Source of the DNA: a virus
Reading direction: 5' to 3' (one strand)
Length of the DNA stretch: 64,000 bases
IMG/VR virus record: IMGVR_UViG_3300009159_000033
This document shows positions 1-39,200 of the stretch, piece by piece. A program made the translations under genes and the position numbers. Every line of letters begins with the position of its first letter. The first letter of the stretch is position 1. The notes below the pieces were generated by a model that did not search any database, was not told where the DNA came from, and worked only from the letters and a program-made list of their open reading frames with translations.

Positions 1-12
1 GGAGATTATTTA

Positions 13-393
13 ATGCAAGTACATGAAGCATTTAAACTTGGGTTTTTATCTAGGTGTGTCGAAGAGGGAATGAATCCCGAGCAGACACATGGTTTGTCTA
101 AAATGGCTGCAAGCTTATTTAGCCCAATGGGTGAAGTGCGTAACGCTGTTGGAACTCTTGGGGACATGGCCCCGTATTTAGCGGCAGGATTGGCAATTCC
201 GCCTGCCCTTGGCGGTCTTGCTGCCTACTTTGCTAACCAAGCTACAGACACAGAAAGCAGTCAAGGCGTAGATAATATTAAGCGGCAGGAATTGCAAGAA
301 ACTTATGAAAGAATGGCTGGGCAGCTGCAAAGGCAGAAAGAACGACAAGATTATAAAGCAAAGCGTAAGAGTACTGGGCGTATTTTCCTGTAA
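13..393 (+). CDS. Hypothetical protein, putative internal head/ejection protein
   Basis: SD GGAG upstream; Gly/Ala-rich hydrophobic segment (YLAAGLAIPPALGGLAAYFA) followed by a coiled coil; KLG and KMAA motifs. Confidence 0.55.
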   Translation: MQVHEAFKLGFLSRCVEEGMNPEQTHGLSKMAASLFSPMGEVRNAVGTLGDMAPYLAAGLAIPPALGGLAAYFANQATDTESSQGVDNIKRQELQETYERMAGQLQRQKERQDYKAKRKSTGRIFL

Positions 394-408
394 CCGGAAG
401 AGGCTAAG

Positions 409-783
409 ATGGCTAATAGTTTAGTGAAGTTTACCAACCGAAAAGAAGGTAACGAGCGAGGCCAATTGTTTTGGGATCGTGCGGATGTAGATGGTCTGCC
501 TTTCCGAGGACATCAAGCACCCCTATACCGCAACGAAGAGTATGAAGACAGACTAGTACGAGTAGCTGACCCAAAAAACGCTACTTTCTACACTGGGGAT
601 AACGAACAGAACTTGGCCTATTTAAAAGTCATGGATGGTGTGGCAAATTCTTGGTATCAGTTGGTGTTTATCGAAAGATGGCGAGAAGAGAAAGATAAGC
701 ATCATTACATCTACGCAGAGTGGCTCGAATATTTCTTAGAAGATGGTAATCCCTGCTTGATGCCTTCTTCCTCTACCCCATAA
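409..783 (+). CDS. Hypothetical protein
   Basis: 124-aa ORF with SD-like GAGG, tiles with neighbours; no motif recognised. Confidence 0.6.
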   Translation: MANSLVKFTNRKEGNERGQLFWDRADVDGLPFRGHQAPLYRNEEYEDRLVRVADPKNATFYTGDNEQNLAYLKVMDGVANSWYQLVFIERWREEKDKHHYIYAEWLEYFLEDGNPCLMPSSSTP

Positions 784-787
784 GGAT

Positions 788-1570
788 ATGGACATGAATA
801 AGACAAGCGCAAAAAAGTTATTGAAACAAATTAAAGTTGAAAAATCTGCAGCAACACCAATTGGTGCGCTCGGTGATGATCTTAGAACGCAAGTTAATCA
901 ACAAATGCAATCTGATGCAATTAAAACTATTCTTAAGGCAGTAGCATTTGCAGCAGGAACTGGAGCTGCAGTTAGAGGAGTTACCGGACTTTTTGAAGGG
1001 CCAAGAAACCCTAAAAAAGGCCCGCGCGTAATTGATATGCCGGTAGCATATCCAAAAGAAAAGAATGCAATAGATTCAAATTCTAGAGCGACTTCTCCTT
1101 ATGGTTTAGACTACTTTTTACCTAGCCTTGTGGTAGGTGCTCCACTCGCTGCTTATGGTGGCTGGAAAGGTGTAGATCTTTTGCTAAACAAAGTAAAGGA
1201 ACGAGAAAGCAAAGCAAAGCTTGAATCTTCAAAAAAGAAATACGAGGAAGCTTTACTTGGAGCATACAAGCAAGGAACTGATGATTGCTTAGACCAGGCA
1301 TTTTCTGGATATAGTCAAAAAGCGGCATTAGATCCTATTGGTGCCATTTCTGACAAATTTAATTCTACTTTTCCAAATGCTTCTGGGCTTGGTAAAGGAC
1401 TAGCTTTAACTTGGTTGTTGTCTAGTGTTCCTGCTGGTTACTACTTGGTCAACAAAGCTATGAAAAAGAATAGTAGGCGCGCCATATTGGAAGAGGCTGT
1501 CGAAGAAAGAGCACGTCGGCAAGCATTGACACAACCTCCTGAAATTTACGCTACTCCGCATGCCGTATAA
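788..1570 (+). CDS. Putative internal head/ejection protein with three hydrophobic Gly/Ala segments
   Basis: AVAFAAGTGAAVRGVTGLF, LVVGAPLAAYGGWKGVDLLL, GLGKGLALTWLLSSVPAGYYLV; EKSAA, EKNA, QKAA motifs. Confidence 0.55.
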   Translation: MDMNKTSAKKLLKQIKVEKSAATPIGALGDDLRTQVNQQMQSDAIKTILKAVAFAAGTGAAVRGVTGLFEGPRNPKKGPRVIDMPVAYPKEKNAIDSNSRATSPYGLDYFLPSLVVGAPLAAYGGWKGVDLLLNKVKERESKAKLESSKKKYEEALLGAYKQGTDDCLDQAFSGYSQKAALDPIGAISDKFNSTFPNASGLGKGLALTWLLSSVPAGYYLVNKAMKKNSRRAILEEAVEERARRQALTQPPEIYATPHAV

Positions 1571-1590
1571 TCTTATTTAGAGTTTTATGA

Positions 1591-4500
1591 ATGCTTCCAC
1601 TTTCATCTAATTTGTTTGATTCTTCTAATCTCTCGTTGCTAGGGAATACACCTCCTTTAGCACAGCCGATGCAGCCATTGCCACCCGCAACTCCATTGCC
1701 TAGCTTTCATGAATTTCATGACACTAAGAAGGTCAGATCTATTATCTACGATAGAGTGCTGCAAGCAGCTCAGCAGCTACAGCCTATGGCTAATGATCGG
1801 CATACGCTTAGTTTAACTGGAGTAAATTACCGTGATGGTGATACCGCTAGCAAACAGGAGCAGAAAGCTGCCATTCTTAATGGTAGATCCCAAGGACGTA
1901 GGCTAGAAGGTACTTGGGAGTTAATGGATAACGCAACACAACAAGTAATCGCTTCTAAGAAATCAGTTCTTGCCACTGTGCCTCACTTGACGGATCGTGG
2001 CACCTTTATCAACAACGGCACTGAGTACATTCTAAGAAATCAACAGCGGTTATTGCCCGGAGTTTACACCCGCACACGGAACAATGGTGAAATTGAATCC
2101 CATGTTAATGTGATGCCTGGGAAAGGTGTATCACAGCGTTATTTCTTAGATCCCGAGAAAGGCAAATTTAAGCTTAAGGTTGGGCAAGCTTCAGTTGGAT
2201 TAACTCCTTTGTTAAAAGCTATGGGAGTTACCTCGGAGCAGGCGCAGGAAGCTTGGGGTAAAGATCTATTCGCTTCTAATTACAATTCGGATGATGCATC
2301 CGAATACACACGGCTTAAAGGCATGTTTCTTTCTTCTAAAGAACTAGCTGAGCCAGAAGAAAAACAAAAACAAGCATTGCTTGCTAAGTTTTCTAAGATG
2401 GAAATGGATCCCGAGGTAAATCGTCGCACGCTGGGAAACCCACATTCAGGTGTCACACTAGACACATTGATGGACATTACTAAAAAGCTGATAAAGGTTA
2501 ATAGGAAAGAAGCGGATCCGGATGACAGAGATGCACTTCACTTTCAGCAATTTGTAGGTCCAGAAGATTTGTTTTCAGAGCGTATTGCCCGAGATAAAGG
2601 CGGGGTACGACGTAACCTACTTTGGAAGATGTCGGGCAAAGGTGATTTAAACTCAATGCCATCTTCTGCTTTAGACAAACAGGTGAAAAGTGCTTTGCTT
2701 GGCAGCGGGCTGGGACAAGCTATTGAAGAAATTAATCCTACAGACATTTATGAAAAGACAATGTCTGTTACTCGAGTAGGTGAGGGTGGTATTGGTTCTA
2801 TGGATGCAATTCCCATGGAATCCAGAAATGTACAGTCAAGTATGCTGGGTTATGTCGATCCTGTGCGTACTCCCGAGTCGGGTCGTGTTGGGGTGGACAC
2901 TTATCTGGCTAGGGGATCTCGTAAGGGAAGTGATGGTAAGCTCTATGCTCAGTTTAAGGATATGCGTAACGGGGAAATGACTTTTAAAACTCCTCAAGAT
3001 GTAGCAGACCTAACTGTCGGTTTTCCCGGAAGCCAAGAAGGCGAAGATGGCCGTGTAGTGGCGATGCGTGGCGGTAAGATGTTACATGTACCTAAATCAA
3101 GCATTGATTTAGAGCTTCCTGACATGGAAGAAGCATTTAATCCTCTTTCCAATGTTATCCCTATGAAGAGTCAGGTAAAGGGTCAGCGATTAGTTATGGC
3201 ATCTCGTATGACTACACAAGCATTACCTTTAGCTTCTCCCGAAGCTCCTTTAGTACAGTCAGCGGTTCCCCGCACAGGTGGCAAACAAAGTTATGAAGAG
3301 CTATACTCGGCTGGGATGGGAGCTTTAAGAGCTTCCCAAGGGGGCACAGTTACCTCCGTGACAGATGAAGAGATTAAAGTGCGGAATGAAGATGGAACCG
3401 AGGAAACGCACGAACTTTATCACAACTTTCCTTTTAATCGTAAAACCTTTTTTCATCAAACCGCTGCAGTTCAACCTGGCGACACATTTAAGCCAAACCA
3501 GTTGTTAGCAAGTTCTAACTTTACAAACAAGACAGGAACAATGGCTTTAGGTACAAATGCACGTACCGCTTATATCCCATGGCAGGGTAAGAACTTTGAA
3601 GATGCAATTGTCATCTCAGAAAGTTTTGCAAAGAAGACAGCCTCTTCTCATATGTATCAGCATGAGCTGGAAGTGGATGACAAAACACAAGTTGGTAAAA
3701 GACAATTTATTCAAGCATTTCCAGCTACATTCAAGAAAGACATATTAGCGAACATAGATGATCAAGGAGTGATCAAACCAGGCACAGTAGTTAATTTTGG
3801 AGATCCTTTGGTACTAGGGATTACACAAAAGGAAAATGCATACAACAAGGTACATAAGAAGGGTCAAGCCGGGTTCAACGATGCAGCCGTACTTTGGCAG
3901 CATCACGATACTGGTGTTGTTACTGATGTGGTGATGGGTAAGAAGGGTCCGGTCGTTGTAGTTAAAGCAGAATCTCCAACGCAAGTTGGTGATAAGTTAT
4001 CTGGTCGTTATGGGGACAAAGGTGTTATTGCGGACATTATTCCAGATAGCGAAATGCCACACGATTCAAATAAGTTACCTTTTGAAGTGCTGCTTAACCC
4101 TCTTGGTATTATTAGTCGAACTAACCCTGCTCAAATGTCTGAATTGTTTCTAGGTAAAATAGCGGCTAAGCGTGGTATGCCGATTAAAGTAGATGATTTT
4201 GATACTAAAAAAGATATGACTCAATGGGTCATGCAAGAACTGGCTAAAGAAGGTTTGTCGGACTTAGAAGACATTATAGACCCATCTAAAGAACAAAAAA
4301 TTAAAAATATAGCAACTGGTAGTCGTTTCTTTATGAAGCTACATCATACTTCTGAGTCTAAAGGACAAGGTAGGAGCGGTGGTGCTTACACGATGGAAGA
4401 TGCCCCAGCCAAAGGTGGCATTGAAGGTTCTAAGCGTATTGGGCTAATGGATGCTAATGCCTTGCTATCTCACGGAGCCACGGACACACTGCAAGATATC

Positions 4501-6057
4501 TTCACAGTTAGAAGGCAGAAGAATGATCAGTATTGGATGCAGTACATGTCGGGGTATAACCCTAAAGTTACTAAGGTTCCTTTTGCTTATCAGAAGTTTG
4601 TAGCCCAGTTACAATCTGCTGGTGTTAATGTAGTCAAGCAGGGAACGCAGACTCAGATTATGGCATTAACGGACAAGGATATCGATAACTTAGCTGGGGA
4701 TCGTGAGCTTAGCAGTGCCGATGGAGTGGAGTGGGGCAACCAGCTTAAAGAGATTAATGGTGGCTTGTTTGACAAGGCTAAGACCGGCGGGCATGGTGGC
4801 ACTCGATGGTCGTTTATGCGTTTGCACGAACCTTTACCTAACCCAGTAATGGAAGAACCTATCCGTCATATGCTTGGGCTAACACAGAAAAAGTTTGAAG
4901 GTATTGTGGCTGGCACAGAATTTTTAGAGAAATATGGAACCGGTACGAAAGCGTTACAAAAAGCATTAGCAGATCTTAATCCTGCTGCAGAAATTCCTAA
5001 AGCTCGGGCTATTATTGCGGCGGGTAGAGGGGCTCAGCGGGATGAGGCAATTCGTAAACTTGGTTATTTTAAATCGGCACAGAAACTTAATTTGCAGCCT
5101 GCAGACTACATGCTGACCAAAGTTCCAGTTCTTCCCCCAATGTTTCGTCCAGTTAGCTTGATGAGCAACGGCATGCCATTGGTTAACGATGCTAATCACC
5201 TTTACAAAGAACTGTTTGAGGCTAATCAGAATTTTAGCAAAATGCAGCAAGAAGTAGGGGAAGAGGCTTCGGGATCGGAGCGTCTTTCCACCTATCAAGC
5301 ATTTAAAGCGGTGACTGGTCTAGGAGATCCGATTAGTGCAAAAAGCCAAGAGAAGAATGTTCGTGGGGCTTTAAAAAATGTGTTTGGTGCAAGTCCTAAG
5401 TTTGGGATTGTGCAACGTAAACTGATTTCTTCTACAGTAGACAATGTGGGCCGAGCGGTAATTACTCCAAATCCGGAATTGGACATGGACTCGGTAGGGC
5501 TACCCGAAGACAAGGCATTTAAGGTCTATGAGAAATTTGTTACTAGAAGATTGGTGCGACAAGGCATGTCTATGCTACAGGCTCGTACTCAATTAGAAGA
5601 TAAGACTCCAGTAGCACGCAAGTTCTTGCTTGAAGAGATGGAGCATCGTCCTGTATATATTAGTCGTGCTCCTGTTTTGCATAAGTTTGGGATTATGGCA
5701 ATGAGACCAAGATTGACTAAAGGAAATACCTTACAAGTGAGCCCTTTAATTGTAAAAGGGTTTGGTGCTGACTTTGATGGCGACACCATGAACTATCATG
5801 TGCCAAGTACGGAAAAAGCTAGGCAAGAGGCTTTTGATCGTTTGTTACCTAGTCGTAATCTTTTTAGCATAGGGGATATGAAATCTGTTATGCATGCCCC
5901 TGCTAATGAATACATTGGGGGTTTGTTTATGGGTACAGATCCTTCTCGTAAATCTGATCGACCAGTACGGATTTTTCAGAACATACAAGATGTAAGGCGA
6001 GCACATGCGCGCGGAGATATTTCAATCAACGATCCGGTACGAATTTTAAATGGGTAG
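1591..6057 (+). CDS. rpoBC: Phage multisubunit RNA polymerase: beta fused to N-terminal half of beta' (carries the catalytic DFDGD)
   Basis: RpoB motifs GTFINNGTEY..QQRLLPGVY, DPVRTPESGRVG, AYIPWQGKNFEDAIVISE, GDKLSGRYGDKGV, LLNPLGIISRTN, MKLHH; after ~4650 RpoC motifs GGLFD, VPVLPPMFRP, VDNVGRAVI, SRAPVLHKFGI, GADFDGD (5764-5784). Confidence 0.96.
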   Translation: MLPLSSNLFDSSNLSLLGNTPPLAQPMQPLPPATPLPSFHEFHDTKKVRSIIYDRVLQAAQQLQPMANDRHTLSLTGVNYRDGDTASKQEQKAAILNGRSQGRRLEGTWELMDNATQQVIASKKSVLATVPHLTDRGTFINNGTEYILRNQQRLLPGVYTRTRNNGEIESHVNVMPGKGVSQRYFLDPEKGKFKLKVGQASVGLTPLLKAMGVTSEQAQEAWGKDLFASNYNSDDASEYTRLKGMFLSSKELAEPEEKQKQALLAKFSKMEMDPEVNRRTLGNPHSGVTLDTLMDITKKLIKVNRKEADPDDRDALHFQQFVGPEDLFSERIARDKGGVRRNLLWKMSGKGDLNSMPSSALDKQVKSALLGSGLGQAIEEINPTDIYEKTMSVTRVGEGGIGSMDAIPMESRNVQSSMLGYVDPVRTPESGRVGVDTYLARGSRKGSDGKLYAQFKDMRNGEMTFKTPQDVADLTVGFPGSQEGEDGRVVAMRGGKMLHVPKSSIDLELPDMEEAFNPLSNVIPMKSQVKGQRLVMASRMTTQALPLASPEAPLVQSAVPRTGGKQSYEELYSAGMGALRASQGGTVTSVTDEEIKVRNEDGTEETHELYHNFPFNRKTFFHQTAAVQPGDTFKPNQLLASSNFTNKTGTMALGTNARTAYIPWQGKNFEDAIVISESFAKKTASSHMYQHELEVDDKTQVGKRQFIQAFPATFKKDILANIDDQGVIKPGTVVNFGDPLVLGITQKENAYNKVHKKGQAGFNDAAVLWQHHDTGVVTDVVMGKKGPVVVVKAESPTQVGDKLSGRYGDKGVIADIIPDSEMPHDSNKLPFEVLLNPLGIISRTNPAQMSELFLGKIAAKRGMPIKVDDFDTKKDMTQWVMQELAKEGLSDLEDIIDPSKEQKIKNIATGSRFFMKLHHTSESKGQGRSGGAYTMEDAPAKGGIEGSKRIGLMDANALLSHGATDTLQDIFTVRRQKNDQYWMQYMSGYNPKVTKVPFAYQKFVAQLQSAGVNVVKQGTQTQIMALTDKDIDNLAGDRELSSADGVEWGNQLKEINGGLFDKAKTGGHGGTRWSFMRLHEPLPNPVMEEPIRHMLGLTQKKFEGIVAGTEFLEKYGTGTKALQKALADLNPAAEIPKARAIIAAGRGAQRDEAIRKLGYFKSAQKLNLQPADYMLTKVPVLPPMFRPVSLMSNGMPLVNDANHLYKELFEANQNFSKMQQEVGEEASGSERLSTYQAFKAVTGLGDPISAKSQEKNVRGALKNVFGASPKFGIVQRKLISSTVDNVGRAVITPNPELDMDSVGLPEDKAFKVYEKFVTRRLVRQGMSMLQARTQLEDKTPVARKFLLEEMEHRPVYISRAPVLHKFGIMAMRPRLTKGNTLQVSPLIVKGFGADFDGDTMNYHVPSTEKARQEAFDRLLPSRNLFSIGDMKSVMHAPANEYIGGLFMGTDPSRKSDRPVRIFQNIQDVRRAHARGDISINDPVRILNG

Positions 6058-6129
6058 GCAATATATCTCTATCCTAGATTTTGATTAGAACTTAGAATCA
6101 TAAGATGAGATCACACAAGGAGTATGTTT

Positions 6130-6852
6130 ATGGCAGTTAATTTGGAATTGTTAAAGATGGCCCGACAACATGTAGGAAAACGCCATCTATCTAAATATGC
6201 ATTTGTTGCAGCAGGTGACCCAGCTATGGGTGCTCCTATGCCTTCTGGCGGTGCTCCTCCTATGGATCCTTCCATGGGTGGCGGTGCTCCACCTCCTGAC
6301 CCTTCAATGGGTGGTGCTCCTCCTATGGATCCTTCTATGGGCGGTGGTGCTCCTCCTATGGATCCTTCTATGGGTGGTGGTGCTCCACCTCCTCCCCCTA
6401 TGGACCCAATGGCAGCAATTATGCCAATGGTTCAACAGGCAGTACAACAAGCAATGTCGGCTAATGGTGGTGGGCAACCGCAAGGTGCGGGCCCTGGGCT
6501 TAAACCTAAAATTGACATAAATGTTGAAATTGTACAAATTAAAAAGATGCTTGCTAAAATTATTGATGCTCTTGGTATCCATGTGCCTGTGTCTGATATG
6601 GTGGTAACACCCGAAGATTTAAACCAGATTGCACAAGGTGGACCAGGCTTGGCAGCAGCTACTCCCGATGGTAAGTCGGGTGGCGGTCTTGGGCAGATTG
6701 CCCCTATTTCTCCGATCAAGGCTGCTGAAGCGTGGGAAAGTGGCACAGCTTTTAGTTTATCAGCTGACTACTATCCTCAGCAGCCTTCTAATAAAAATGG
6801 CAGTGTAGCTGCAATGGCTACTGCTCTTTTAATGCGTAATAATAACAAGTAA
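6130..6852 (+). CDS. Low-complexity Gly/Pro/Met-rich protein, putative head/scaffold-associated
   Basis: AAGGAG at 6117-6122 favours ATG 6130 over 6124; GGAPPMDPSM repeats; KYA and KAA motifs; no Cys. Confidence 0.65.
   Translation: MAVNLELLKMARQHVGKRHLSKYAFVAAGDPAMGAPMPSGGAPPMDPSMGGGAPPPDPSMGGAPPMDPSMGGGAPPMDPSMGGGAPPPPPMDPMAAIMPMVQQAVQQAMSANGGGQPQGAGPGLKPKIDINVEIVQIKKMLAKIIDALGIHVPVSDMVVTPEDLNQIAQGGPGLAAATPDGKSGGGLGQIAPISPIKAAEAWESGTAFSLSADYYPQQPSNKNGSVAAMATALLMRNNNK
6226..6410 (+). repeat. Coding tandem repeat (G)GGAPP(M/P)DPSM, about 5 imperfect copies
   Basis: Repeated ggtgctcctcctatggatccttctatg units visible in the DNA. Confidence 0.85.
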
Positions 6853-6865
6853 AGGGGTTCAGCGT

Positions 6866-7090
6866 ATGTTCATCGTGGAGGTTATTGAAAGTATTGGTAA
6901 GCCTCCACTTAGGATACCTGCTTCGCAGGTTGTAGTTCGAATGCAAGATGGTACTCCAGTAAGTGTAGCTGCACTTTTTGGAAGTGCTACTAGTGTGATG
7001 GTATCTCATTGTGAAGATGCTAATTTCAATGATAATTTGCGTAAACTAGGTATCAACGAAACCGTTATTTCTACTAAAGTACAGGTGTAA
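6866..7090 (+). CDS. Small hypothetical protein
   Basis: 74-aa ORF preceded by AAGGGG; tiles between neighbours. Confidence 0.55.
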   Translation: MFIVEVIESIGKPPLRIPASQVVVRMQDGTPVSVAALFGSATSVMVSHCEDANFNDNLRKLGINETVISTKVQV

Positions 7091-7091
7091 T

Positions 7092-7664
7092 ATGGACTCT
7101 TCTTTACGATCTTCTGACTACTACTACCGAGACCGAAAACCAGAGGTTATTCCCGAGATTGTTCCTACTCCTACTTATCAACAATCCTCTAGTATAAACT
7201 CTTCTAACAATAAGTATTATGCCGAGATGGGACCACTTGTTGCAGAAGATGTCCCTCTTATTGCTAAGCTTCAGATGCCTCCGAAAGAAGTAGAATTGGA
7301 GATACTTGATGGTTGCTATGGCCTAGCTACCATACAAGCTGCATTTGAAGACGGAGCCACCCGCATCATAGTTAAAGCCTATGACTATGTAGTGACTCAA
7401 CTGCAAGTTGCTGTAGACATGTCAGTGGGTCGTGGAGAATTAACACGAGAGCAAACAGACTCTATAGTTTTTGTTGTCTTAGCCCCAGAAGCTATTCTTA
7501 GCCCAGAAGAAGTAGCTCTACCTATTGTAGATATGCCAGAGGCGACTGCTGTTTTAAACGAGGCTCCTAAGCCATCTCGTAAAAAAGCAAAGCGTGGCAA
7601 GAGTGAGGAAATTACTCTTAAAGATATCGAAGCTGCCTTTGGTGGTGACGATAGTGACGACTAA
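7092..7664 (+). CDS. Hypothetical acidic protein
   Basis: 190-aa ORF tiling the gap before the second RNAP gene. Confidence 0.55.
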   Translation: MDSSLRSSDYYYRDRKPEVIPEIVPTPTYQQSSSINSSNNKYYAEMGPLVAEDVPLIAKLQMPPKEVELEILDGCYGLATIQAAFEDGATRIIVKAYDYVVTQLQVAVDMSVGRGELTREQTDSIVFVVLAPEAILSPEEVALPIVDMPEATAVLNEAPKPSRKKAKRGKSEEITLKDIEAAFGGDDSDD

Positions 7665-7705
7665 AATCCAGATTTTAAATAATTTGCACACTCTGAGAAC
7701 TATCC

Positions 7706-10700
7706 ATGTTGAATACGACCGTTGGACAACTGTTAATTAATGATGTCCTTCCGGAAGAGTTGAGAGACTCCCATCGTGTGCTAGACAAAAAAGGGTTGCA
7801 ATCTTTACTACAGCAAGTGGCGCGGCAGCACCCAGAGAATTACCGAGATATATCTTTTAAGCTAAGTAATCTTGGTCAAAGTATAGCACAAGAGCAGGGT
7901 GGTATGTCGTTTGGGCTTCGTCACATGCAAGTAAGTAAATCTGCAATAGCTTCCCGCCAGAAGGTTAGAGCTTCTCTTACTAATATCCTAGCTGACGATT
8001 CTTTGACAGACCAAGAGCGAAACGAGCAGATTATTCGTGCAGTTGGCAAGGAAAGTCCAGAACAGCAAAAACAAATACTTGCAGAAGCGTTAAAAGACAA
8101 GAACCCTCTCGGTATGCAGGTTATGTCGGGTACCCGTGGTAAGTCTATGAATCTAACTAGTTTGTTAGGTTCAGACATGCTGTATTCGGACCAGCGTGAC
8201 GATGTAATTCCAATTCCTGTGCTGCGAAGTTACAGCGAGGGGCTGTCTCCTGCCGAGTACTGGGCTGGAACCTACGGAGCACGCAAAGGCATTATGGCAA
8301 CTAAGTTTGCCACACAAGATGCTGGATTCTTTAACAAACAACTTAATCAAACTAGTCATAGATTGGTAGTCACCGGAGAAGATGCCGAAGAGGCAGACGA
8401 CGCACCTATCCGTGGATTAGTGGTGGATACTGATGATCCAGACAATGAAGGGGCATTGCTAGCTCGTAATGTTGGTCCTTACGCTAGAAATACTCCACTT
8501 ACTCCAAAAATACTGAATCATTTAAAACGGCTTGGTACACCTAAAATCTTAGTGAGATCTGCCCTAGTGGGCGGGTCTCCCGATGGCGGTGTTTATTCTA
8601 GAGATGTAGGTATTAGAGAAACTGGAAAGCTGCCTGGGCTTGGCGAGCAAGTTGGGTTACAGGCTGCCCACGCTTTAAGTGAACCGATTAGCCAAGGTCA
8701 GTTATCTGCAAAGCATTCGGGGGGCGTGGCCGGACAAGAAAAAGCTGTTAGCGGTTTTCAGTATTTAAACCAATTAGTACAAGTTCCTAAGAAAATGCAA
8801 GGAGGGGCAGCCCACTCGTTAATGGATGGAGTGGTGCAGCGTATTGAAGAAGCCCCTGCGGGCGGGAGCTATGTCACCATTGGGGATAAACAACATTATG
8901 TAGGGGCTGGGTTTGAGCTTAAAGTAAAAAAAGGAGATGAGGTAGAGGCTGGTGATGTAATTAGTTCAGGAATTCCTAACCCAGCAACTATTACCGAACA
9001 TAAAGGAATTGGAGAGGGTAGGCGGTATTTTGTTAATGAGTTCCGCAAGGCGATGGGTGACAGCGGAATGTTTGGGCACAGACGTAATATTGAGGTGTTA
9101 GCCCGAGGTCTTATCAACCATGTAAGGCTGACAGAAGAAACAGATGACCATGTGCCTGACGATGTTGTTCCTTACTCTACGCTTGAACACACATACAAGC
9201 CACGAGAAGACCACCAGCGGTTAACTCCTAAGCGTGCATTAGGACAGTATCTAGAGCGCCCTGTACTGCACTACACTATTGGGACCAAGATTCGACCTTC
9301 TATGCTTAAGAATTTTGAAGATTTTGAAATTAATGAAATTCCAGTGCATAAGAACCCACCGCCATTTGAACCAAACATGGTTCGTGGGTTGTATCAAATG
9401 CAACATGATCCCGATTGGATGACACAAATGTATGGGTCTGGTCTAAAGAAAAGCTTCTTAGACTCTGTGACTCATGGGGCTATCAGCGAAGAACGAGGTA
9501 CAAGCTTTGTTCCAAGCTTAGCAATGGGTCTTGATTTTGGAGAAGGTAAAAACCATGCGGTAATAAAACCTCAGCCTAGTTATGAGCTACCGGCATTACC
9601 TCCACTTCCTCCCCCTATTCCTTCTACTCCTGCTGCGGCAAAGCCTACAGCTCCTAGCAGTGCTCCTTTTTTTGGCGGGCGTTTTACCCCTGGGCAAACT
9701 AAGCTAGGATTAGATAGCACACCTTCTGTGTCTAAGCCACCTTCTGTCTCTAAGCCACCTGCTGTAACCAGTATGTCACCAGTTTCTAAGCCTCTTAATA
9801 CAAACATTATGCCTTCTCCTACTCCAGCCCCCAAAACTGCACCGACTACCCCAAGTTCAAACCAATTTAGTAACTTGATGCAAAACGATACTTTTGCACA
9901 GCAAACTGGTCAGATGTTAAACGGAGCAGATCCTACAAGTGCACTTATGATGCTAGGAGGCATGGCAGGGGGTAGTAATAACATGTCTCAGTTATTTAAC
10001 TCTGGGCCTTCGCAGCGATTAGCCACAAGCGGTAGTGGCGGTGGAATGTTTGGTAATTTGTTTAATATGTTTGGGAATAACAATCAAAATGGGCAATCAA
10101 TTATGCCCAGTGGAGATTACAACTCAGCTACAAATCAAGGCGGGATGTTGAGTAGTAACACATCTGCGGAATCTGCACCCGCATCTTCAGCAGAAGCAGT
10201 TCCTGCAGAGGCTACATCAAAAGCTGGTCCAGATATATTTACAGCTGTAGATCATGCACCGGCGGCCTATACCGCTATAAAAAATACAATCGTACCGCCT
10301 AAGGCATTACCTACTCCCCCTGCGCCTACTGCACTAGTGCCTAAAGCACCGCTACCTACAGCTCCAGCACCTATTACCCCTACTCCACCGATACCCAAAG
10401 CACCAATACCCAAAGCACCAATGCCAGCTGCACCAATACCAGCTGCACCCGGAGGTTTACTTAGTAAAGTAATGCCAGCAGTTTCCACGACTTACAAAAC
10501 ATTGGCTAAAGCAGCCCCTGGTATTGGAATAGCTTTAGAAACTGGGAGTGTCGGTTACGATGTTTACAATAAGGGTTGGGATAACACAACTAACGACGCA
10601 GCACAAAATATAAGAAACATTGCTTCAGGTAAAGATGGGTTGCACACATTGTGGCAAGCTCCTGTTCAAATTTTAAACCCAGTGGCTAACGCACAGCTAA

Positions 10701-11425
10701 TAGCAGGCGGTACAACTCAGACTGCACAGATGATTGGGGAGCAAGCTGGGATAGGTGCTGAAGCTATTCGAGATAAAGTAACTGGAACTGATGCTATTTC
10801 TCGTGCATCGGTTGTGGACAAATCAAAAGTTAACGCAATGGAAGTAGCAAAGCAAAAAGATTTAGAAGCACAAAAAGCTAAGCTTCAGCAAGAGTCGCAA
10901 AATACAAATATCATGGCTCCCTCCATGATAGAACAAAATAAACAAGAGCAAGCTGGCATCGATGCACAAATAGGAGACGCTAAAACTAGACAAGAAAATA
11001 CGGCAGACGAAACAGCTAAGTGGAGATTAGGTCAGCAGAATTGGTTTGGGAGTGGCGGACACAAATTCCGAGATGCCATGCAAAATTCGGTTGCAGCTAC
11101 GGACACAGAGCTAGCAGATTTAAAAGCTAAAGGTGAATTAGATGCAGTAGGTCAAGCACGGCAGGAGCAGTTATTAAATAGACAGGCGCAGCGTAAGGCA
11201 ATGCTGGGTACTTATGACCGAGAAAGCGGTTCCTCGGGTAAGGGATTATTCAGCAAGGATATACGCAATCGGGTTAGCGGTCTTAAAGAAAACATTGTGG
11301 CAGTTACTGCACAGCTTCGAGATACTTCTCTTCCTCCTGAACAAAGGGCAAAGCTAGAAGCCCAATTGAAAACTAATAACGAGGACCTTGCTGAGTACCG
11401 AGGATGGGCAGAAAGTTCTAAATAA
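7706..11425 (+). CDS. rpoC: RNA polymerase beta' C-terminal half (~7706-9545) fused to a ~625-aa Pro/Ala/Ser-rich and coiled-coil extension
   Basis: NTTVGQLLIN (cf. TTVGR), MSGTRG (cf. SGARG), bridge helix SYSEGLSPAEYWAGTYGARKG..ATQDAGF, trigger loop GLQAAHALSEPISQGQLSAKHSGG, sandwich-barrel hybrid VKKGDEVEAGDVI, RRNIEVLARGL. Confidence 0.93.
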   Translation: MLNTTVGQLLINDVLPEELRDSHRVLDKKGLQSLLQQVARQHPENYRDISFKLSNLGQSIAQEQGGMSFGLRHMQVSKSAIASRQKVRASLTNILADDSLTDQERNEQIIRAVGKESPEQQKQILAEALKDKNPLGMQVMSGTRGKSMNLTSLLGSDMLYSDQRDDVIPIPVLRSYSEGLSPAEYWAGTYGARKGIMATKFATQDAGFFNKQLNQTSHRLVVTGEDAEEADDAPIRGLVVDTDDPDNEGALLARNVGPYARNTPLTPKILNHLKRLGTPKILVRSALVGGSPDGGVYSRDVGIRETGKLPGLGEQVGLQAAHALSEPISQGQLSAKHSGGVAGQEKAVSGFQYLNQLVQVPKKMQGGAAHSLMDGVVQRIEEAPAGGSYVTIGDKQHYVGAGFELKVKKGDEVEAGDVISSGIPNPATITEHKGIGEGRRYFVNEFRKAMGDSGMFGHRRNIEVLARGLINHVRLTEETDDHVPDDVVPYSTLEHTYKPREDHQRLTPKRALGQYLERPVLHYTIGTKIRPSMLKNFEDFEINEIPVHKNPPPFEPNMVRGLYQMQHDPDWMTQMYGSGLKKSFLDSVTHGAISEERGTSFVPSLAMGLDFGEGKNHAVIKPQPSYELPALPPLPPPIPSTPAAAKPTAPSSAPFFGGRFTPGQTKLGLDSTPSVSKPPSVSKPPAVTSMSPVSKPLNTNIMPSPTPAPKTAPTTPSSNQFSNLMQNDTFAQQTGQMLNGADPTSALMMLGGMAGGSNNMSQLFNSGPSQRLATSGSGGGMFGNLFNMFGNNNQNGQSIMPSGDYNSATNQGGMLSSNTSAESAPASSAEAVPAEATSKAGPDIFTAVDHAPAAYTAIKNTIVPPKALPTPPAPTALVPKAPLPTAPAPITPTPPIPKAPIPKAPMPAAPIPAAPGGLLSKVMPAVSTTYKTLAKAAPGIGIALETGSVGYDVYNKGWDNTTNDAAQNIRNIASGKDGLHTLWQAPVQILNPVANAQLIAGGTTQTAQMIGEQAGIGAEAIRDKVTGTDAISRASVVDKSKVNAMEVAKQKDLEAQKAKLQQESQNTNIMAPSMIEQNKQEQAGIDAQIGDAKTRQENTADETAKWRLGQQNWFGSGGHKFRDAMQNSVAATDTELADLKAKGELDAVGQARQEQLLNRQAQRKAMLGTYDRESGSSGKGLFSKDIRNRVSGLKENIVAVTAQLRDTSLPPEQRAKLEAQLKTNNEDLAEYRGWAESSK

Positions 11426-11444
11426 TATTAGTTGTGTGCTTGTA

Positions 11445-11476
11445 TTGCGGTATAGGCCCCTATATGGCTAAACTGG
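11445..11476 (+). promoter_or_regulatory. Putative sigma70-type promoter TTGCGG-N18-TAAACT(GG)
   Basis: Intergenic; same design as 25556-25586; spacer holds the palindrome TATAGG-cc-CCTATA (11451-11464). Confidence 0.45.
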
Positions 11477-11512
11477 TCTAATAATTTCAAGTTTTAAACT
11501 TAGGTGAATATT

Positions 11513-11722
11513 ATGTGGAATAAACCGCTGCTTGGTGGGCTTGACATAAAATATGCTGCAGCATACTTGTTGCCTCCGACTACCATGAAGAAAAAGAAAA
11601 AGAAAACGCCACTAGAGGAAGAAGAAACGGATGTGGAAAAGGTGGCAGCTGCCTTGGGTGATGCTATTGTAAATGCCCGCCTTTCTTTACTTAGACAGCA
11701 GATGCGCTCTAATAATCGGTAA
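11513..11722 (+). CDS. Small hypothetical protein with a poly-Lys tract followed by an acidic tract
   Basis: AGGTG SD favours ATG 11513; MKKKKKKTPLEEEETD; KYAA and KVAA motifs. Confidence 0.55.
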   Translation: MWNKPLLGGLDIKYAAAYLLPPTTMKKKKKKTPLEEEETDVEKVAAALGDAIVNARLSLLRQQMRSNNR

Positions 11723-11738
11723 GTAATACAATCGAGGA

Positions 11739-14270
11739 ATGTTGCTCATGGAAATGCCTAGACAAAATAATTTATTGAAGAATGCTAGTATCGGCGGTAA
11801 GGGAGGAGAAACTGAATTTGAACAAGCTTTCTCTAGCTTGGCTTATGCTTATTTAAAAGATAAGGCACCCCGCCTCCTTGATTACATGTTAGGCTTCCAG
11901 CTAATTGATCGAAATGAAGATAACACTAAAGCTATTGGTGTCTTTGGTTTTCAAGTCGGCAAGCAATGGTTGTACGCTCCTGTATTTTTCTTAAATGGTG
12001 ATTTAAAAGGACACGAGTTACTCTACATAAAAAATAATGATTCGTTTGTTCCTATGAAGGAAAACTGGATCAACTATCTTATGAGTCGAAAACCTCATAT
12101 TTTAGGGGAGTCTTCCGTAGGTAAATTACAAGAGTTAGGAGGAATCGCTCCTGATATCAATTCTTTATCTATTTCTCCCCAAGGCCACAAGCACGCAAGT
12201 GATTCCCAGTGGTTACAGCCCGTTCTACCTATGCTAGCGGCCTTCAAAGTAAAACTTGCGGGCTCTTTGTACCGTGGTGCCGGCAGCCGTAAGCTGGATC
12301 AAAAGGCAGTTGTTCGAGTGCCATTCACAGCAGCATTAACCAAGACAGCTTCAAATCTGGATTTTAACCAAGTGCTGCCTAAAAGCTTGGCATTACTTGA
12401 AGCAGCTTACGACTTAGCAGAACGCTATCCCACCATTAAAAAAGCTACTAGTGACTTCTATGGTGTGGATTGTTTTTCACGCTGGGCTAAAGAACTTCGA
12501 AGTAACACAATCAAGCAGGCTAGCAGCATTCTTCCTACGCCTACTACTGTCACACTTGTGCCCAACACCTTGCTAAGCTCACTATCCCAGCCACTTCCTA
12601 TTACCGACCACATTAAGGAAGGTAAGTTAGAAGTCTATATGTCAGCTTCTGTGGTAACTAATAAAGATGAGCTAAACACCCTAGATCGAGAAAGGTTATT
12701 ACAAGGCAAAGTAGTCATCAAAGATCGTAGAGAAGATACAGAAGTAAGTAAGCTTTACACCACTGAAAATGATATTAGCCTCACCAACCCCTCTGAAACT
12801 GAATTGTATTCTGTTTTAGAGAGCTCTGGTGAATTTAGTAAAATGTTGGTGGTCTTGAATGGTATCAGCAGTCGTGGAGCAGAGTCCATGACCACAGTTG
12901 TACGGATAGATAAAAAGGATGGGGCTAACAAAAGCTGGTTAAATGCCGACAGCACGTCAGTTTTTGCTACACAAGTTTCTGACAAAGACGAGTGGAAAGA
13001 TTGGTTTGATGGCTTATCCTCTGATACAGACTTGGACGAGGATGCAGAATATATTGCTATAAACTACAGTCGTTCAGCTACTGCTCCTTTCCGTGTAACT
13101 ACGGACATGGGTGATGGTGAGTACAAAGTAGATTTTCGCACGAATAAAGATTATTCAGCTTCACGTAGCGAGCTGATGCCTAAGATACAAGATCGGTATG
13201 CTCCTTCTAGGCGGGGCATGGCAGCAGGTGCTAATCTAATAAGTTCTTTCAATAGTAATAGTAATTATGGGGCTACTCTAATCATTGGCAAAGAAGATAA
13301 GAGCGGCCTTAGACTTAGACCTGTCTCCGGACAACTTCGTGTGCCAGCTTCTTTCAAGTTCATCAAATTGTCGGATGGTTCTTCTTCCAGCATCTTTGGC
13401 GGGTGTGGCTGTTCACCTTTTGACGATGAATCAAATCCTATTAAGTTAGGTGGCTTAGCTGACATCAAACGCTTATTAGTTGAAAAGACAGCTAGGCTCA
13501 AGATATTTAATAACGGAACTGATGTGTACCTAGACTCTGTAATCGGTGCCGTTCAATTAAGCAAAAAAGCAGCACTATGCCGCTTGGTAGACACACATGG
13601 ACTTCGTGAAAAAGTTGCCGTGGATATGCTGCAACAAGCAGAGAAAAAAGGTCATGCAATTTATCGTGTGCTTTATGCTGCTGGTTATGGGACCGAGAAA
13701 CAAGCTGAGCCTAATACCAGCGTGTTAGCTGGAGGCCCATCCTTCCCCCTTGATACGGATACTTCTGGGGATCGTGGCAGTGAAACCTATGGCCCAAGCA
13801 CCTCTGCCCTAACTCGATATTCTACCGAGAAAAACTCGCCTATCCCTTCAATGAGCGGTAAGAACACAAATAGGTCTAAGTGGGACAACTGGCAGAACTT
13901 TGAAGCTAAAGATTTTCAACAAAATCTGCAATCTGCTCAAACTGCTGGCAAAGATGGGCAGAAAGAAGTATTTGATGTTTCAATGATGGCAGGTATGTTA
14001 AAAACAGTAAGACAAGATTCACTAGTAGATCGCCACTTGGGCGACTTAATGGCAGCCTTGGATTCGCTAGGCCGGTTGTTAATGAATTTCTACTGGCATC
14101 AAGAAGAATTTGAAGATAGATATGGCAAAAGTGATCTTCCAGAGTTAGAAGATAGTTTGCGCAATGCTTTTGAAGCTCTTGGTGATATTACACTCTTCTT
14201 GAAAGAGAAGACTATTGAGTCATCATTTGATAAAGGTGACATTAACTTAGACGAAGTTTCAAGGAACTAA
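11739..14270 (+). CDS. Large hypothetical protein, putative internal head protein (start possibly 11748)
   Basis: 843-aa ORF in the head region; KNAS, KHAS, KTAS, KQAS, KTA, KQA motifs. Confidence 0.7.
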   Translation: MLLMEMPRQNNLLKNASIGGKGGETEFEQAFSSLAYAYLKDKAPRLLDYMLGFQLIDRNEDNTKAIGVFGFQVGKQWLYAPVFFLNGDLKGHELLYIKNNDSFVPMKENWINYLMSRKPHILGESSVGKLQELGGIAPDINSLSISPQGHKHASDSQWLQPVLPMLAAFKVKLAGSLYRGAGSRKLDQKAVVRVPFTAALTKTASNLDFNQVLPKSLALLEAAYDLAERYPTIKKATSDFYGVDCFSRWAKELRSNTIKQASSILPTPTTVTLVPNTLLSSLSQPLPITDHIKEGKLEVYMSASVVTNKDELNTLDRERLLQGKVVIKDRREDTEVSKLYTTENDISLTNPSETELYSVLESSGEFSKMLVVLNGISSRGAESMTTVVRIDKKDGANKSWLNADSTSVFATQVSDKDEWKDWFDGLSSDTDLDEDAEYIAINYSRSATAPFRVTTDMGDGEYKVDFRTNKDYSASRSELMPKIQDRYAPSRRGMAAGANLISSFNSNSNYGATLIIGKEDKSGLRLRPVSGQLRVPASFKFIKLSDGSSSSIFGGCGCSPFDDESNPIKLGGLADIKRLLVEKTARLKIFNNGTDVYLDSVIGAVQLSKKAALCRLVDTHGLREKVAVDMLQQAEKKGHAIYRVLYAAGYGTEKQAEPNTSVLAGGPSFPLDTDTSGDRGSETYGPSTSALTRYSTEKNSPIPSMSGKNTNRSKWDNWQNFEAKDFQQNLQSAQTAGKDGQKEVFDVSMMAGMLKTVRQDSLVDRHLGDLMAALDSLGRLLMNFYWHQEEFEDRYGKSDLPELEDSLRNAFEALGDITLFLKEKTIESSFDKGDINLDEVSRN

Positions 14271-35743: not shown

Positions 35744-36252
35744 CTGTTCGGTCGGCATTGCAGGGAATAATCGACTACAGTAAGGCAGACTTACACAGTA
35801 ATATGTGGTGGACTCGTTGGAAATACTTAATTCGAGCAATGGAAGAATCCTCTCGAGAAAAACTTCTGCATCATGCCTATGAGTTTCAATTAGCATTAGT
35901 CTCTAGTTCAAAGCTTTCTTCCGAAGATTTCTCTAAGTTACAAAAAGAATGTAAAGAACTTTTTGCAGATTTAGAAGGAAGTTTGCGACCTTGGCTTGGT
36001 CGTTCTTCAGAAGATCGTCATACTAAGGATGTTGGAAGTTTTAAAGAACAGTGGAAAGCTTTAATGGGCTTTGACCCTGACGATTTAGAAGCTAAAGCAA
36101 AGTGGGAAAAGGAAGTAGGAGAAGCAGCAGAGTCCGTGACTAGCCGAGTGGTGGCGGCTCAAAATGAAGCGGCAGCACAGGAAGCTTCGTTTTACACCAA
36201 GTTAGAGAATATAAGGTTAAAGCGGCTTAGACAGCAAGGACGCATAAAATGA
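35704..36252 (+). CDS. Tail assembly chaperone -1 frame extension (lambda GT-like)
   Basis: -1 frame reads KFYERDRAAILTVRSALQGIIDY..; the track start is only a TTG at 35758; stop overlaps the tape-measure ATG. Confidence 0.65.
   Translation, partial: RPKFYERDRAAILTVRSALQGIIDYSKADLHSNMWWTRWKYLIRAMEESSREKLLHHAYEFQLALVSSSKLSSEDFSKLQKECKELFADLEGSLRPWLGRSSEDRHTKDVGSFKEQWKALMGFDPDDLEAKAKWEKEVGEAAESVTSRVVAAQNEAAAQEASFYTKLENIRLKRLRQQGRIK
35707..35716 (+). other. Putative programmed -1 ribosomal frameshift site
   Basis: In-frame C CCA AAT and A AAT TTT heptamers (X XXY YYZ); the -1 frame is open from 35704 to 36252. Confidence 0.7.
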
Positions 36253-39200
36253 CCATGGATCCCAGCCAACTATCGTGGATGCAGGATGCAACACAAGGAC
36301 TGCTGCCTGGTGGGCAATTTAGCCCGCATCCCTCGGGTGGTGCGGGGTATTTAGCACAATTAGCTAAAGGGTATAGTCCTGCGATACAAGGTAACTCACT
36401 CCCTGACACATCTCCCTTAGCCCCTCTTAACTTACAGCAGTATGGCATAGGTGGCATGCTAGCAGGTGCTGTTGGTAACTCTTACCTATCAGGACAGATG
36501 CAGCAGCAAGGCTTGCTGCCGATGGGCAATGCTGGTTCTTACATGCAAGCACATCGTACTCGTGAACATTTACGGATGAAGAACGATGTTAGCGCAGGAG
36601 TAGCGAGTCAAGACGCTGATGGTATCTATCGATCTTTCCGTGGAGCTGCAGCCTTGGCTGGAGTTCCGTTTGACCGTAAACAGCGAGAAGCAGCTCGTAA
36701 TATATCCGATACCGTTGCTTCGCTTGGGCCTACTCTTTCAATGGTTGCTCCTGATTTTATGGATGCAATTTCTGGAGAAAAAGGTAGCGTACAAGCGATG
36801 GCCGGTCAGATGATGGAAGCAAATCGTTACCGCGCAGATCCTATCACAGGCAAAATGGGTTACAGCACTGAATCAAATAAAAACCTAGTTAACAATGTTT
36901 TTGAAAACATGTTTTCTAAAGATAACATGGCTCAGATGAATGGCATGCGTGCCGGAGACATGGGACAAGCATACCGGCAGTTGTCTTCAGAAGGATTAGT
37001 TGGACCTACCGGAAGTTTGCGTGATCGCACCATCCAATCGCTGCAAGAAGGCAGAGAGCAGGGGATGGATTTAAAAGCTATAGGTAAAAAGGCTGGAGTT
37101 GAGATTAATGATGATACCAACCTCTCTAACTTATCTAATGAAGCATTAACTAAACTACGCAAGGATTCCACTGTCTCCGCTAAAATGGGCAAGGACGACG
37201 CTAGACAAGTGGCAGACCAGTTACAAGGCTATGTTGGGTCACTCTCTGCTATCCGTGAAGTGTTTGGAGAAAATGGAGACGCAAACGCACCTGTACCTAA
37301 ATTGATAAATGCGCTTAAAGCCATGACCTCAGGACAAATGCAAAAATTTAGTCCAGGGCAGCTTACCTCGATGGTTCGAGATATGCAGGCTATGTCTCAA
37401 CTTTCGGGTAAAAGTATCGACCAACTAGCTGCAATGAATCAGTATGCTAACACGCAGAACTCTCAGATGATGGGTGGGTATGGGGTTCATTTTAATCCTG
37501 CATCACTTAAGGTTGGAACTACTACGGGTATGGCTTTCGCTGAGCATGGCGGAGCTACCGGATTTGGTGCATTAAACCGAGAACAAGCAGAACAAGCATC
37601 CATGGGTTTATTCTCTCGTGGTATGGGCTCACAGATGAATAACGCTTTAGGTGCTTTAACACGCATCGAAGAAGCTGGAGGGTTTGCTGAGAATGAGGCT
37701 GGGCGGGAAATGAAAGCTGTGTTGGCAGCTGCCGACTCGGGAGCACACACTTACACATTTGTAGATGATAATGGTAAATCTAAGACAAAGAATACCCCAA
37801 CTAAAGAAAGTGAATTTAGAAGTATAGTTGGTAGGGGTGCTGTGGAAGGTATGAGCACCTCTGACTTTAATATGATGCTAGGAGATACCACTTCCAATTT
37901 ACGTGCTTTGTCTACTAACGAGGAAAGACAACAGGCGGCACTGCGCCAGCAGCCAGCTGAGGTTGCTAGAGAAATTGAAAGAAGCACAGCTAATCGATTA
38001 TCTTCAAACAAAGCACTTAAAGACCAAGTTTCAAGCCCTAAGGAGCGTGCAGAAATTGCTGCAGCATTAGGTAAAGCAGCTACAACGGCTACCGATGAAC
38101 TGACCATGGAGCAGCTACAAGATCCAAAACAAAGAAATCAAGCCATTGCAGATGCCCTACAATCAGAGGCGGGTAATCGTGGGGTAACTTTAACCGATGC
38201 AGAAGCTCAAAACATGGCTGCTACTTCCTTTGGACAAAGGGAGTCAGTACTACGCACAAGACTAGACATGGATGCAACTTCTTATGCTCAAACTCACGGC
38301 AAGGCTGTAAGAGAAAGTCGGGAAGACAAGCAAGCTGAAGTATCCGCACGCGCAGGTATAAACGAAGCGATGTCGGGATTAGGGCCAAAAGGTAGCTTCT
38401 TACAGCGGGCTTCCACTGCATTGCAGAAGCAGGGAGATCGAGGCGGAGAAGCTAATCTAGATACAATGCTGGGAGATATGTTTGCTGGGGACATGGACGA
38501 AGCCTCTAAACAATTAAACAAACCTTTGGAAAGTGTGCGGGCTAGCCAGTCTAAGATTGAAAGTTTAACTAATCAGCTACAAGGTGCCAGCCCCGAAGAT
38601 AAAAAGAGAATTCAAAAAGAGATTAAAGAAGAGACAGTAATGCTGAAGAAGCATGTGACAGCTAGTCGGGAGCTGGCAGATAGTCTTGGGCTTACAGATA
38701 AAGAAGGAGAATTTAATCAAGCCGATATTGCTAAAGGTAAAGAAGCTGCACGAGAATTAGATCACTTCAACCGAATAGAGCAAGTGCGGGTAAGCGGTGC
38801 GACTGCTACTGTGACAGATCTAGAAAGAAAAGGAGCTAGCACAACAAAACTTACAGACAATGACTTACGAGTAATTGCTGAAAAAGATCGCACTAACAAA
38901 TTACAAGAAGCGGATAAAATAGCAGCTGGCGATATAAAAAAGATGTCTCCAGAAGCTAAAGAAACTTACGATAAAGCGATTGCCAGCGGGGCTACGGAAG
39001 AGGCGGCACGCGCACGAGTAAAGGAAAAGTTAAGAAGTAATGTAGCTTCCGTAGATTCCCGAGCTAGGGAGATGAGGGAAGAACTAGGAACAGAAGCCAC
39101 GGTTGGTGGTTTAAAAGATAAAGAAGTCCAAGATGCAATTATTCAAAAGCGACGCAGTGATGTAGAAATGAAGCCGACAGCTAAAGCGGTTGAAGACCGA

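Follow-up and report, generated by a model that had tools for sequence, protein, structure and literature searches.

How are the beta and beta-prime subunits of a bacterial-type RNA polymerase (RNAP) divided between polypeptides in a large phage? The question is raised by two genes near the start of a 64-kb stretch of DNA (hereafter the window), which is the reverse strand of positions 213-64212 of the 172,719-bp IMG/VR record IMGVR_UViG_3300009159_000033. An earlier note, made from the letters of the window, had described a re-partitioned enzyme in which beta is fused to the front of beta-prime (beta-prime N) on one chain, referred to here as chain 1, while the remainder of beta-prime (beta-prime C) is encoded apart from it, on chain 2. 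Our analysis confirms this arrangement. In our reading, the phage has its own multisubunit RNAP of bacterial type, the two genes encode its catalytic core, and the chain boundaries have moved; we hold this with a probability of about 0.85. Feature coordinates are collected in Table 1.

The open reading frame (ORF) of chain 1 is open for 1488 codons up to a stop at 6055-6057. Pfam places Rpb2_3 at residues 376-440 and Rpb2_6 at 581-935 (E 1.4e-50) in its front part, followed by Rpb1_1 at 1168-1222 and Rpb1_2 at 1334-1414 (E 1.2e-23), and a phmmer search of the PDB with the chain returned beta at E 1e-67 and beta-prime N at E 1e-45. On the strength of these matches, its likeness to RNAP subunits is far beyond chance. 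Residues 119-1014 align by phmmer with E. coli beta 116-1337; since residue 1014 thus falls on position 1337 of 1342, the beta module is complete to its C-terminus. It includes the double-psi barrel of beta and its conserved lysine motif, here GDKLSGRYGDKG (nt 3988-4023, residues 800-811), which aligns within E. coli beta 1057-1127; the E. coli counterpart reads GDKMAGRHGNKG. From the motif QSAGVNV, which begins at nt 4612, RpoB sequence then runs stop-free into RpoC sequence, as the earlier note had seen at ~4630-4670. Both the family alignment, which is indel-free at the junction, and a structure model show the beta C-terminus passing into the beta-prime N-terminus without a break, the linker connecting the final beta strand with the first beta-prime strand. 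Further on, a profile of 98 family members corresponds to E. coli beta-prime 163-550, with its final positions at V550, and the catalytic GADFDGD lies at residues 1392-1398 (DFDGD at 1394-1398, nt 5770-5784). In this barrel motif the three Asp are invariant across the family. The chain ends in ...DPVRILNG, past DFDGD as had been read, and thus stops at E. coli ~553, without a complete beta-prime. The claim that both catalytic double-psi barrels share one chain is borne out as well, Rpb2_6 and the DFDGD-bearing beta-prime N being part of the same 1488-aa (amino acid) ORF. As both barrels, with the GDK...GDKG lysines and the DFDGD magnesium site, are on chain 1, the whole catalytic centre would be located there.

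Chain 2 is encoded by an ORF of 1239 aa (7706-11425). Its ATG at 7706 opens the sequence MLNTTVGQ, 1648 bp after the end of chain 1, in agreement with the NTTVGQ reported 1.65 kb downstream. A PDB search aligned its residues 2-494 with Streptomyces beta-prime 658-1169 (E 2e-35). Against the E. coli subunit, the alignment covers beta-prime 719-955 and 1195-1286; T4 corresponds to T572 of the E. coli TTVGR motif, and residues 132-356 to beta-prime 719-955, with the GARKG... and ...KHSGG blocks. The bridge helix and trigger loop are present, the trigger-loop His being kept. A region-H-like block ends near 9529 and the last RpoC-like block near nt 9545. Because the profile of chain 1 ends at V550 and T4 of chain 2 equals T572, the break falls in the loop that corresponds to residues 553-568 of E. 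coli beta-prime. The positions stated in the earlier note all hold. Chain 2 would thus supply the mobile elements of the enzyme, i.e. the bridge helix, the trigger loop, parts of the jaw and cleft, and region H.

Table 1. Position and supporting evidence of the RNAP genes, their modules and associated reading frames in the window.
Feature	Position	Strand	Evidence
Chain 1 gene, beta::beta-prime-N fusion, 1488 aa	1591..6057	+	single ORF; Pfam; PDB beta and beta-prime/gamma chain matches
Beta module, residues 1-1016	1591..4638	+	phmmer against E. coli RpoB
Linker, KQGTQTQ, about residues 1017-1023, ~8 residues	4639..4659	+	family alignment, AlphaFold model, structural alignment
Beta-prime N module, residues ~1024-1488, E. 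coli ~20-553, no zinc ribbon	4660..6054	+	family profile, VIA-align
Intervening ORF, 242 aa	6124..6852	+	no Pfam or PHROG family; conserved in relatives
Intervening ORF, 74 aa	6866..7090	+	78-91% identity in three IMG/VR relatives; no family match
Intervening ORF, 190 aa	7092..7664	+	30-74% identity in three IMG/VR relatives; no family match
Beta-prime C module, chain 2 residues 1-613	7706..9545	+	Pfam Rpb1_5; PDB beta-prime chains; E. coli alignment
Chain 2 motifs	TTVGQ 7715-7729; bridge helix near 8276-8350; trigger loop near 8675-8725	+	motif search
Chain 2 C-terminal tail, ~625 aa, non-RNAP	9546..11425	+	no RNAP similarity past residue ~610
Putative sigma-70-like factor, 245 aa	45758..46495	+	Pfam Sigma70_r3, tblastn to Arash gp10

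The window is taken from one metagenome-assembled record, in which a lost stop codon, a frameshift or a chimeric join might create an apparent fusion, and an insertion an apparent split. The relatives speak to this. Three IMG/VR contigs (157-194 kb, 70-91% identity) each carry a fusion gene of 1479-1488 aa, three small ORFs and a beta-prime C of 1060-1310 aa, and a 235-kb contig (58% identity) has a fusion of 1472 aa, then four small ORFs, then a beta-prime C of 641 aa. In the best 120 clusters at 90% identity, fusion proteins are mostly ~1480 aa long and nearly all have both PF00562 and PF00623; longer members contain inteins and a few shorter ones are fragments. A query of 301 aa across the junction retrieved 1319 representatives of 50%-identity clusters (734 at E<=1e-30). 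The junction is spanned in one stretch by all of the best 150 representatives, beta-prime C is contained in none of them, and the complete ones share one beta-prime N end point. Relatives of beta-prime C have PF04998 only and, with few exceptions among the 120 listed, begin 2-6 residues ahead of TTVG. The hallmark of the lineage, a fusion of ~1450-1530 aa ending ~90 residues past DFDGD together with a beta-prime C that opens 2-6 residues before TTVG/xxGA, is also seen here. Of 50,697 phage records searched, four match chain 1 over more than 80% of its length, namely Salmonella phage Arash and Vibrio phages D69, D148 and D181, and in alignment their fusion proteins have the same junction and the same C-terminal end. 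With an indel-free junction and one C-terminal end in independent assemblies from many samples and in four isolates, and with the Arash fusion protein itself seen by mass spectrometry (see below), an artefact of assembly or sequencing has practically no chance of being the explanation. Conservation of junction and split in related contigs, which the earlier note had proposed to check, was thus found, and no close relative has separate beta and beta-prime. As judged from these alignments, the layout is real and common to hundreds of uncultured phages and a few isolates.

We then asked whether the split might be only apparent, with a self-splicing intron or a split intein restoring one full beta::beta-prime chain of Helicobacter type. 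The RNAP genes of the lineage are rich in mobile elements, with a group I intron and HNH endonuclease in D181 and inteins in many homologues, which gives this alternative some footing. The gap between the two genes does not fit it. An Rfam scan of 5800-7900 at E<=1 returned no intron family and just a chance microRNA match. A split intein is excluded: the end of chain 1 and the start of chain 2 both lie inside beta-prime-homologous sequence, leaving no intein halves of ~100 aa or ~35 aa. The gap instead holds three ORFs whose protein sequences are conserved in relatives. The Arash halves are separated by 4.7 kb that include genes on the opposite strand, and mass spectrometry of virion preparations identified both gp206 (1525 aa, beta::beta-prime N; 128 unique peptides and the highest spectral count) and gp216 (606 aa, beta-prime C; 40 peptides) (PMC10585845). 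As the scan detected no intron in the gap and split-intein halves would have no space, the split exists at the protein level too, and a restored full-length chain is highly unlikely. Of the three ORFs, which gave no functional match in Pfam or PHROGs and nothing usable from the ESM Atlas, the first has its likelier start at ATG 6130, behind AAGGAG. It combines PPMDPSMGGGA-type Pro/Met/Gly repeats with a conserved core, is conserved in the three IMG/VR relatives, and its core (residues 102-176) is found at 60% identity in the 235-kb relative, again as the first ORF after the fusion gene. Its product may be an RNAP partner or a virion protein.

Mobile elements were encountered repeatedly in these genes. 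The fusion gene of D181 (OZ196140.1) contains a group I intron at 9389-9669 (RF00028, 100.7 bits, E 1e-26), followed at 9683-10300 by an HNH/NUMOD homing endonuclease; D69 is without the insert, and the D181 record annotates the exons as separate hypothetical proteins. In a Logan contig of SRR9952630 (3071-10846), the fusion gene is broken near residue ~905 by a 120-aa ORF for which Pfam gave no match and at which Rfam showed no intron. The final ~75 beta residues there remain joined to beta-prime N, and five cluster representatives begin at this break point. The interruption represents another natural split or else a mobile element that escaped recognition. In addition, many homologues of both chains are enlarged by 300-1500 aa and contain intein/LAGLIDADG domains (PF14528, PF14890, PF05203, PF03161). 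The RNAP genes of the lineage are thus a hot spot for inteins and mobile elements, and with the inteins, the D181 intron and the SRR9952630 interruption in view, the origin of the break is probably historical: the split is probably the fossil of a mobile-element insertion at a permissive boundary and not an adaptation. The break may be tolerated owing to its position in an intermodular surface loop.

The beta-prime N-terminus required a structural approach. Pairwise alignment of residues 1016-1110 with E. coli beta-prime 1-135 gave just a spurious 9-residue match, and beta-prime 1-162 was detected neither pairwise nor with the family profile; the beta-prime N-terminus is therefore placed by the structure model alone. 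The AlphaFold model covers residues 930-1488 of chain 1, with an input alignment of 40 sequences. Its mean pLDDT (predicted local distance difference test) is 70, the first 62 residues being poor, as their beta context is absent, and the rest good. Strands 83-88 and 91-96 of the model, residues 1012-1017 and 1020-1025 of the chain, represent the last beta and the first beta-prime strand and lie adjacent, with a tight turn between them. VIA-align of the model with beta-prime chains gave Z 21-23. In the E. coli entries, model residues 91/92-559 correspond to beta-prime 19/20-553, so that beta-prime begins at residue ~1021, and in cyanobacterial gamma the model ends at residue ~558 of ~625. About 85 residues thus stand in place of beta-prime 1-162, and the zinc ribbon has been lost. 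In every bacterial RNAP, the C-terminus of beta lies next to the N-terminus of beta-prime. E. coli RNAP reportedly tolerates engineered splits at natural split sites, in work by Severinov et al. of 1996, and a tethering study of 1997 is said to have found that it tolerates a beta-beta-prime tether.

Which other subunits would such an enzyme use? No PF01000 (alpha) or PF01192 (omega) match at E<=0.1 was obtained in the 172.7-kb record, while all 14 control genomes were matched. The two chains may thus assemble without alpha or omega, the covalent beta-beta-prime link replacing the alpha-dimer platform and securing 1:1 assembly of the two barrels. For sigma, region 2 had no Pfam match in the genome, and the sigma-like gene was located via Arash gp10. 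The ORF scores 26.7 bits with Sigma70_r3 (cut-off 25.3), has a weak r4, and is a homologue of the Arash gp10 sigma (tblastn E 1e-14). Its product is probably the specificity subunit of the fused-and-split RNAP, which would then rely on the phage's own sigma-like factor. Both beta-prime zinc sites, which are Cys clusters, are missing from chains 1 and 2, and cysteine is absent altogether: none of the 2727 residues of the two chains is a cysteine, vs 0.9% in the 50 ORFs of the window. Cysteine is likewise lacking in 89 of the 98 fusions and in 90 of the 120 beta-prime C proteins among the relatives. Two further products of the window, the sigma-like protein (245 aa) and that of a 2044-aa ORF at 36249-42383, are also cysteine-free.

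On its gene content and protein matches, the source is a large tailed phage, a distant relative of Arash (24-29% protein identity). The long ORFs of the window, a baseplate wedge protein among their products, lie nearly all on one strand, and both RNAP genes belong to a one-strand block that also encodes baseplate and further structural proteins. The window contains homologues of the Arash sigma and of an Arash baseplate protein, and homologues of the Arash portal and large terminase are encoded elsewhere in the genome. The tail of chain 2 is low in complexity, first Pro/Ala/Ser-rich, then Gly/Met/Asn-rich, with a coiled-coil-like end. Its length varies, with beta-prime C proteins of 714-1815 aa in relatives, and it is missing from Arash gp216, the D69 homologue (609 aa) and the 235-kb contig. 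By composition and distribution, the tail is lineage-specific and predicted to be disordered. Window positions 1591-1710 encode a Pro-rich leader of ~40 residues at the N-terminus of chain 1, without a counterpart in bacterial beta; its opening, M-x-P-x-x-x-N-L-[FL]...S-L-L, recurs in three IMG/VR relatives and in the family consensus.

These features bear on where the enzyme would act. In Arash, gp206, gp216 and the sigma gp10 were all detected in virion preparations by mass spectrometry (PMC10585845). Because of the Arash proteome, the position of the genes in the structural block, the lack of cysteine and the tail, the RNAP may be carried in the virion for early transcription, as in Arash. 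The other possibility is a real enzyme outside the virion, a middle or late polymerase made after infection and perhaps borrowing alpha and omega from the host. The authors of the Arash study allow that abundant enzymes may just co-purify with particles (PMC10585845), and alpha and omega were searched only at Pfam level, both of which would suit such an enzyme. Set against it are the Arash chains, sigma and a helicase, which rank among the most abundant proteins of the virion preparations, the sharing of a one-strand block with baseplate and structural genes, and the clade-wide absence of cysteine together with the disordered tail of chain 2, which would fit an ejected protein. A polymerase restricted to the infected cell therefore appears unlikely to us, though it is the strongest of the competing explanations. 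Taking these elements together, we tentatively propose, at somewhat less than even odds, a widespread undescribed class of RNAP that is two-chained, free of alpha and omega, free of zinc and cysteine, sigma-dependent, packaged in the capsid and coejected with the DNA; in it the fusion would replace the alpha platform, and cysteine loss and tail would be adaptations to packaging and to passage through phage tail and envelope.

Several observations weigh against the overall interpretation. The catalytic motif is GADFDGD vs NADFDGD in most relatives, G replacing the residue that is most often N at the first position. The first ~85 residues of the beta-prime part are without sequence similarity to beta-prime 1-162. 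In VIA-align, the root-mean-square deviation (rmsd) is high, at 17-24 Å over 380-450 residues; this is because clamp and barrel are oriented differently in the isolated model, and the aligned ranges are therefore more reliable than the superposition. The absence of alpha and omega is a Pfam-level result in a record of 84% completeness (CheckV), so that divergent or host-supplied subunits are possible. Packaging is extrapolated from Arash at ~29% identity, with co-purification noted by the Arash authors themselves. Alternatively, the two genes could encode RNAP-derived proteins that no longer transcribe, whether degenerate or recruited as structural proteins, and the loss of both zinc sites, the shortened beta-prime N-terminus and the G for N in NADFDGD could all be cited in favour of this. 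It is nonetheless very improbable: DFDGD, the beta lysine motif and many further positions are invariant or nearly so in 40 sequences whose identity goes as low as 55%, the bridge helix and the His of the trigger loop are preserved, and most relatives retain NADFDGD. A catalytic core with moved chain boundaries stands as the preferred reading.

How does this core compare with known systems? The closest are Arash and the Vibrio phages D69, D148 and D181. They have the same partition, with a beta::beta-prime N of ~1525 aa and a separate beta-prime C, and their portal, large terminase, baseplate and sigma proteins are homologous to those of the present phage. The RNAP chains are, however, just ~29-30% identical. 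Their beta-prime C is ~606 aa long and tail-free, whereas that of the present phage has 1239 aa and a tail; the intervening genes share no homology with those here, most of the Arash ones being encoded on the opposite strand; and their chains have a few cysteines, in contrast to none here. In D148 and D181, chain 1 carries a group I intron. The published Arash annotation calls gp206 and gp216 simply beta and beta-prime.

Each part of the arrangement is also known on its own. Natural RpoB::RpoC fusions occur in Helicobacteraceae and Wolbachia (PMC7483510, PMC2919709), as the earlier note had mentioned, and as here a single ORF runs from the beta C-terminus straight into the beta-prime N-terminus. 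There, however, the fused chain contains the whole of beta-prime, and alpha, omega and the zinc sites are kept, while here beta-prime stops at ~553. Cyanobacteria and jumbo phages cut beta-prime past its double-psi barrel (PMC7598289), and the domain boundary of the cut in cyanobacterial and plastid RpoC1/RpoC2 and in the phiKZ/AR9 jumbo phages is the same as here. The cyanobacterial gamma is ~65 residues longer and includes TTVGR, in contrast to the phage, where TTVGQ stands at the head of the C-terminal piece. Residue 5 of RpoC2 pairs with residue 23 of chain 2, and the phage break therefore lies ~18 residues earlier, an offset inferred from alignment coordinates; the statement that the cyanobacterial split falls slightly after TTxGR agrees with this. 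A short search of the PDB with residues 1-140 of chain 2 returned no cyanobacterial or jumbo-phage chains. In cyanobacteria and jumbo phages, moreover, beta is unfused from beta-prime N. The phiKZ/AR9 type has beta in 2-3 chains, no sigma, and two paralogous sets, virion and non-virion, whereas here beta is intact, a sigma-like gene is present, and there is one locus (a single PF00562 locus in the genome). With beta fused, beta-prime N ending at ~553 and TTVGQ on the C-terminal piece, the partition is indeed unlike either the full fusion or the cyanobacterial split.

The logic of the partition has one further parallel. In the yeast linear plasmid pGKL2, K2ORF6p comprises beta and the front of beta-prime, and K2ORF7p the remaining C-terminal regions (PMC6211774, PMC2919709); as here, beta and part of beta-prime are on one chain and the remainder on a second. 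The position of the break differs, however: that of pGKL2 separates beta-prime a15 from a16, at the archaeal A'/A'' site, a long way downstream of the present one, which at E. coli 553-568 is upstream of the bridge helix. The pGKL2 enzyme is also drastically reduced (974-982 and 132 aa), while the phage chains are full-sized, and its transcription machinery has a reported origin close to poxviruses. Finally, mReC phages and Kleczkowskaviridae Rhizobium phages, of 100-300 kb, have deep-branching bacterial-type beta and beta-prime. The mReC supplement lists separate beta of ~1000-1370 aa and beta-prime of ~900-1010 aa (Weinheimer & Aylward 2020, PMC7481178), and Rhizobium phage RHph_Y65 has an unsplit beta-prime of 1127 aa. 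Supplementary Data 2 of the same study also contains a contig, 3300008406_Ga0115224_1000088, with a ‘beta’ of 1487 aa as gene 80 and a ‘beta-prime’ of 1303 aa as gene 83. Known to us from the table entries, their sizes and spacing fit the fused-and-split layout, and the paper treats them as ordinary subunits.

We found no published description of a beta::beta-prime-N / beta-prime-C partition, in a literature whose coverage was incomplete, so that absence is unproven, and the jumbo-phage RNAP reviews make no mention of it. The exact combination is apparently undescribed in the searchable literature. Its novelty is smaller than first implied, however, because the layout is already present, unremarked, in GenBank phages, the boundary in jumbo phages (PMC7598289) and the logic in pGKL2 (PMC6211774).

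Three observations on the rest of the window may be added. A promoter and terminator scan of 1-12000 gave counts no higher than in shuffled sequence. PHROG families annotated ‘RNA polymerase beta subunit’ match window proteins weakly. Lastly, 38001-42000 shows a strong strand-composition anomaly, with an AT skew of 0.31-0.38, a GC skew of up to 0.27 and GC down to 0.38; this stretch lies inside the 2044-aa ORF mentioned above.

What would such a partition mean? It adds a fourth natural pattern to the bacterial, the cyanobacterial/jumbo-phage and the archaeal ways of dividing the beta/beta-prime core, and it is common rather than rare: the clusters at 50% identity number at least 150 and probably exceed 700. 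Chain 1 receives the label ‘beta’ from annotation pipelines, and chain 2 either ‘hypothetical’ or ‘beta-prime’; phylogenies based on COG0085/COG0086 can therefore mis-handle fused-and-split proteins. A compact core of this type would suit structural work, for which Arash provides a cultured model whose chains are already known to be abundant. Above all, an enzyme with both barrels on one chain and without alpha or omega would test how dispensable the assembly platform is.

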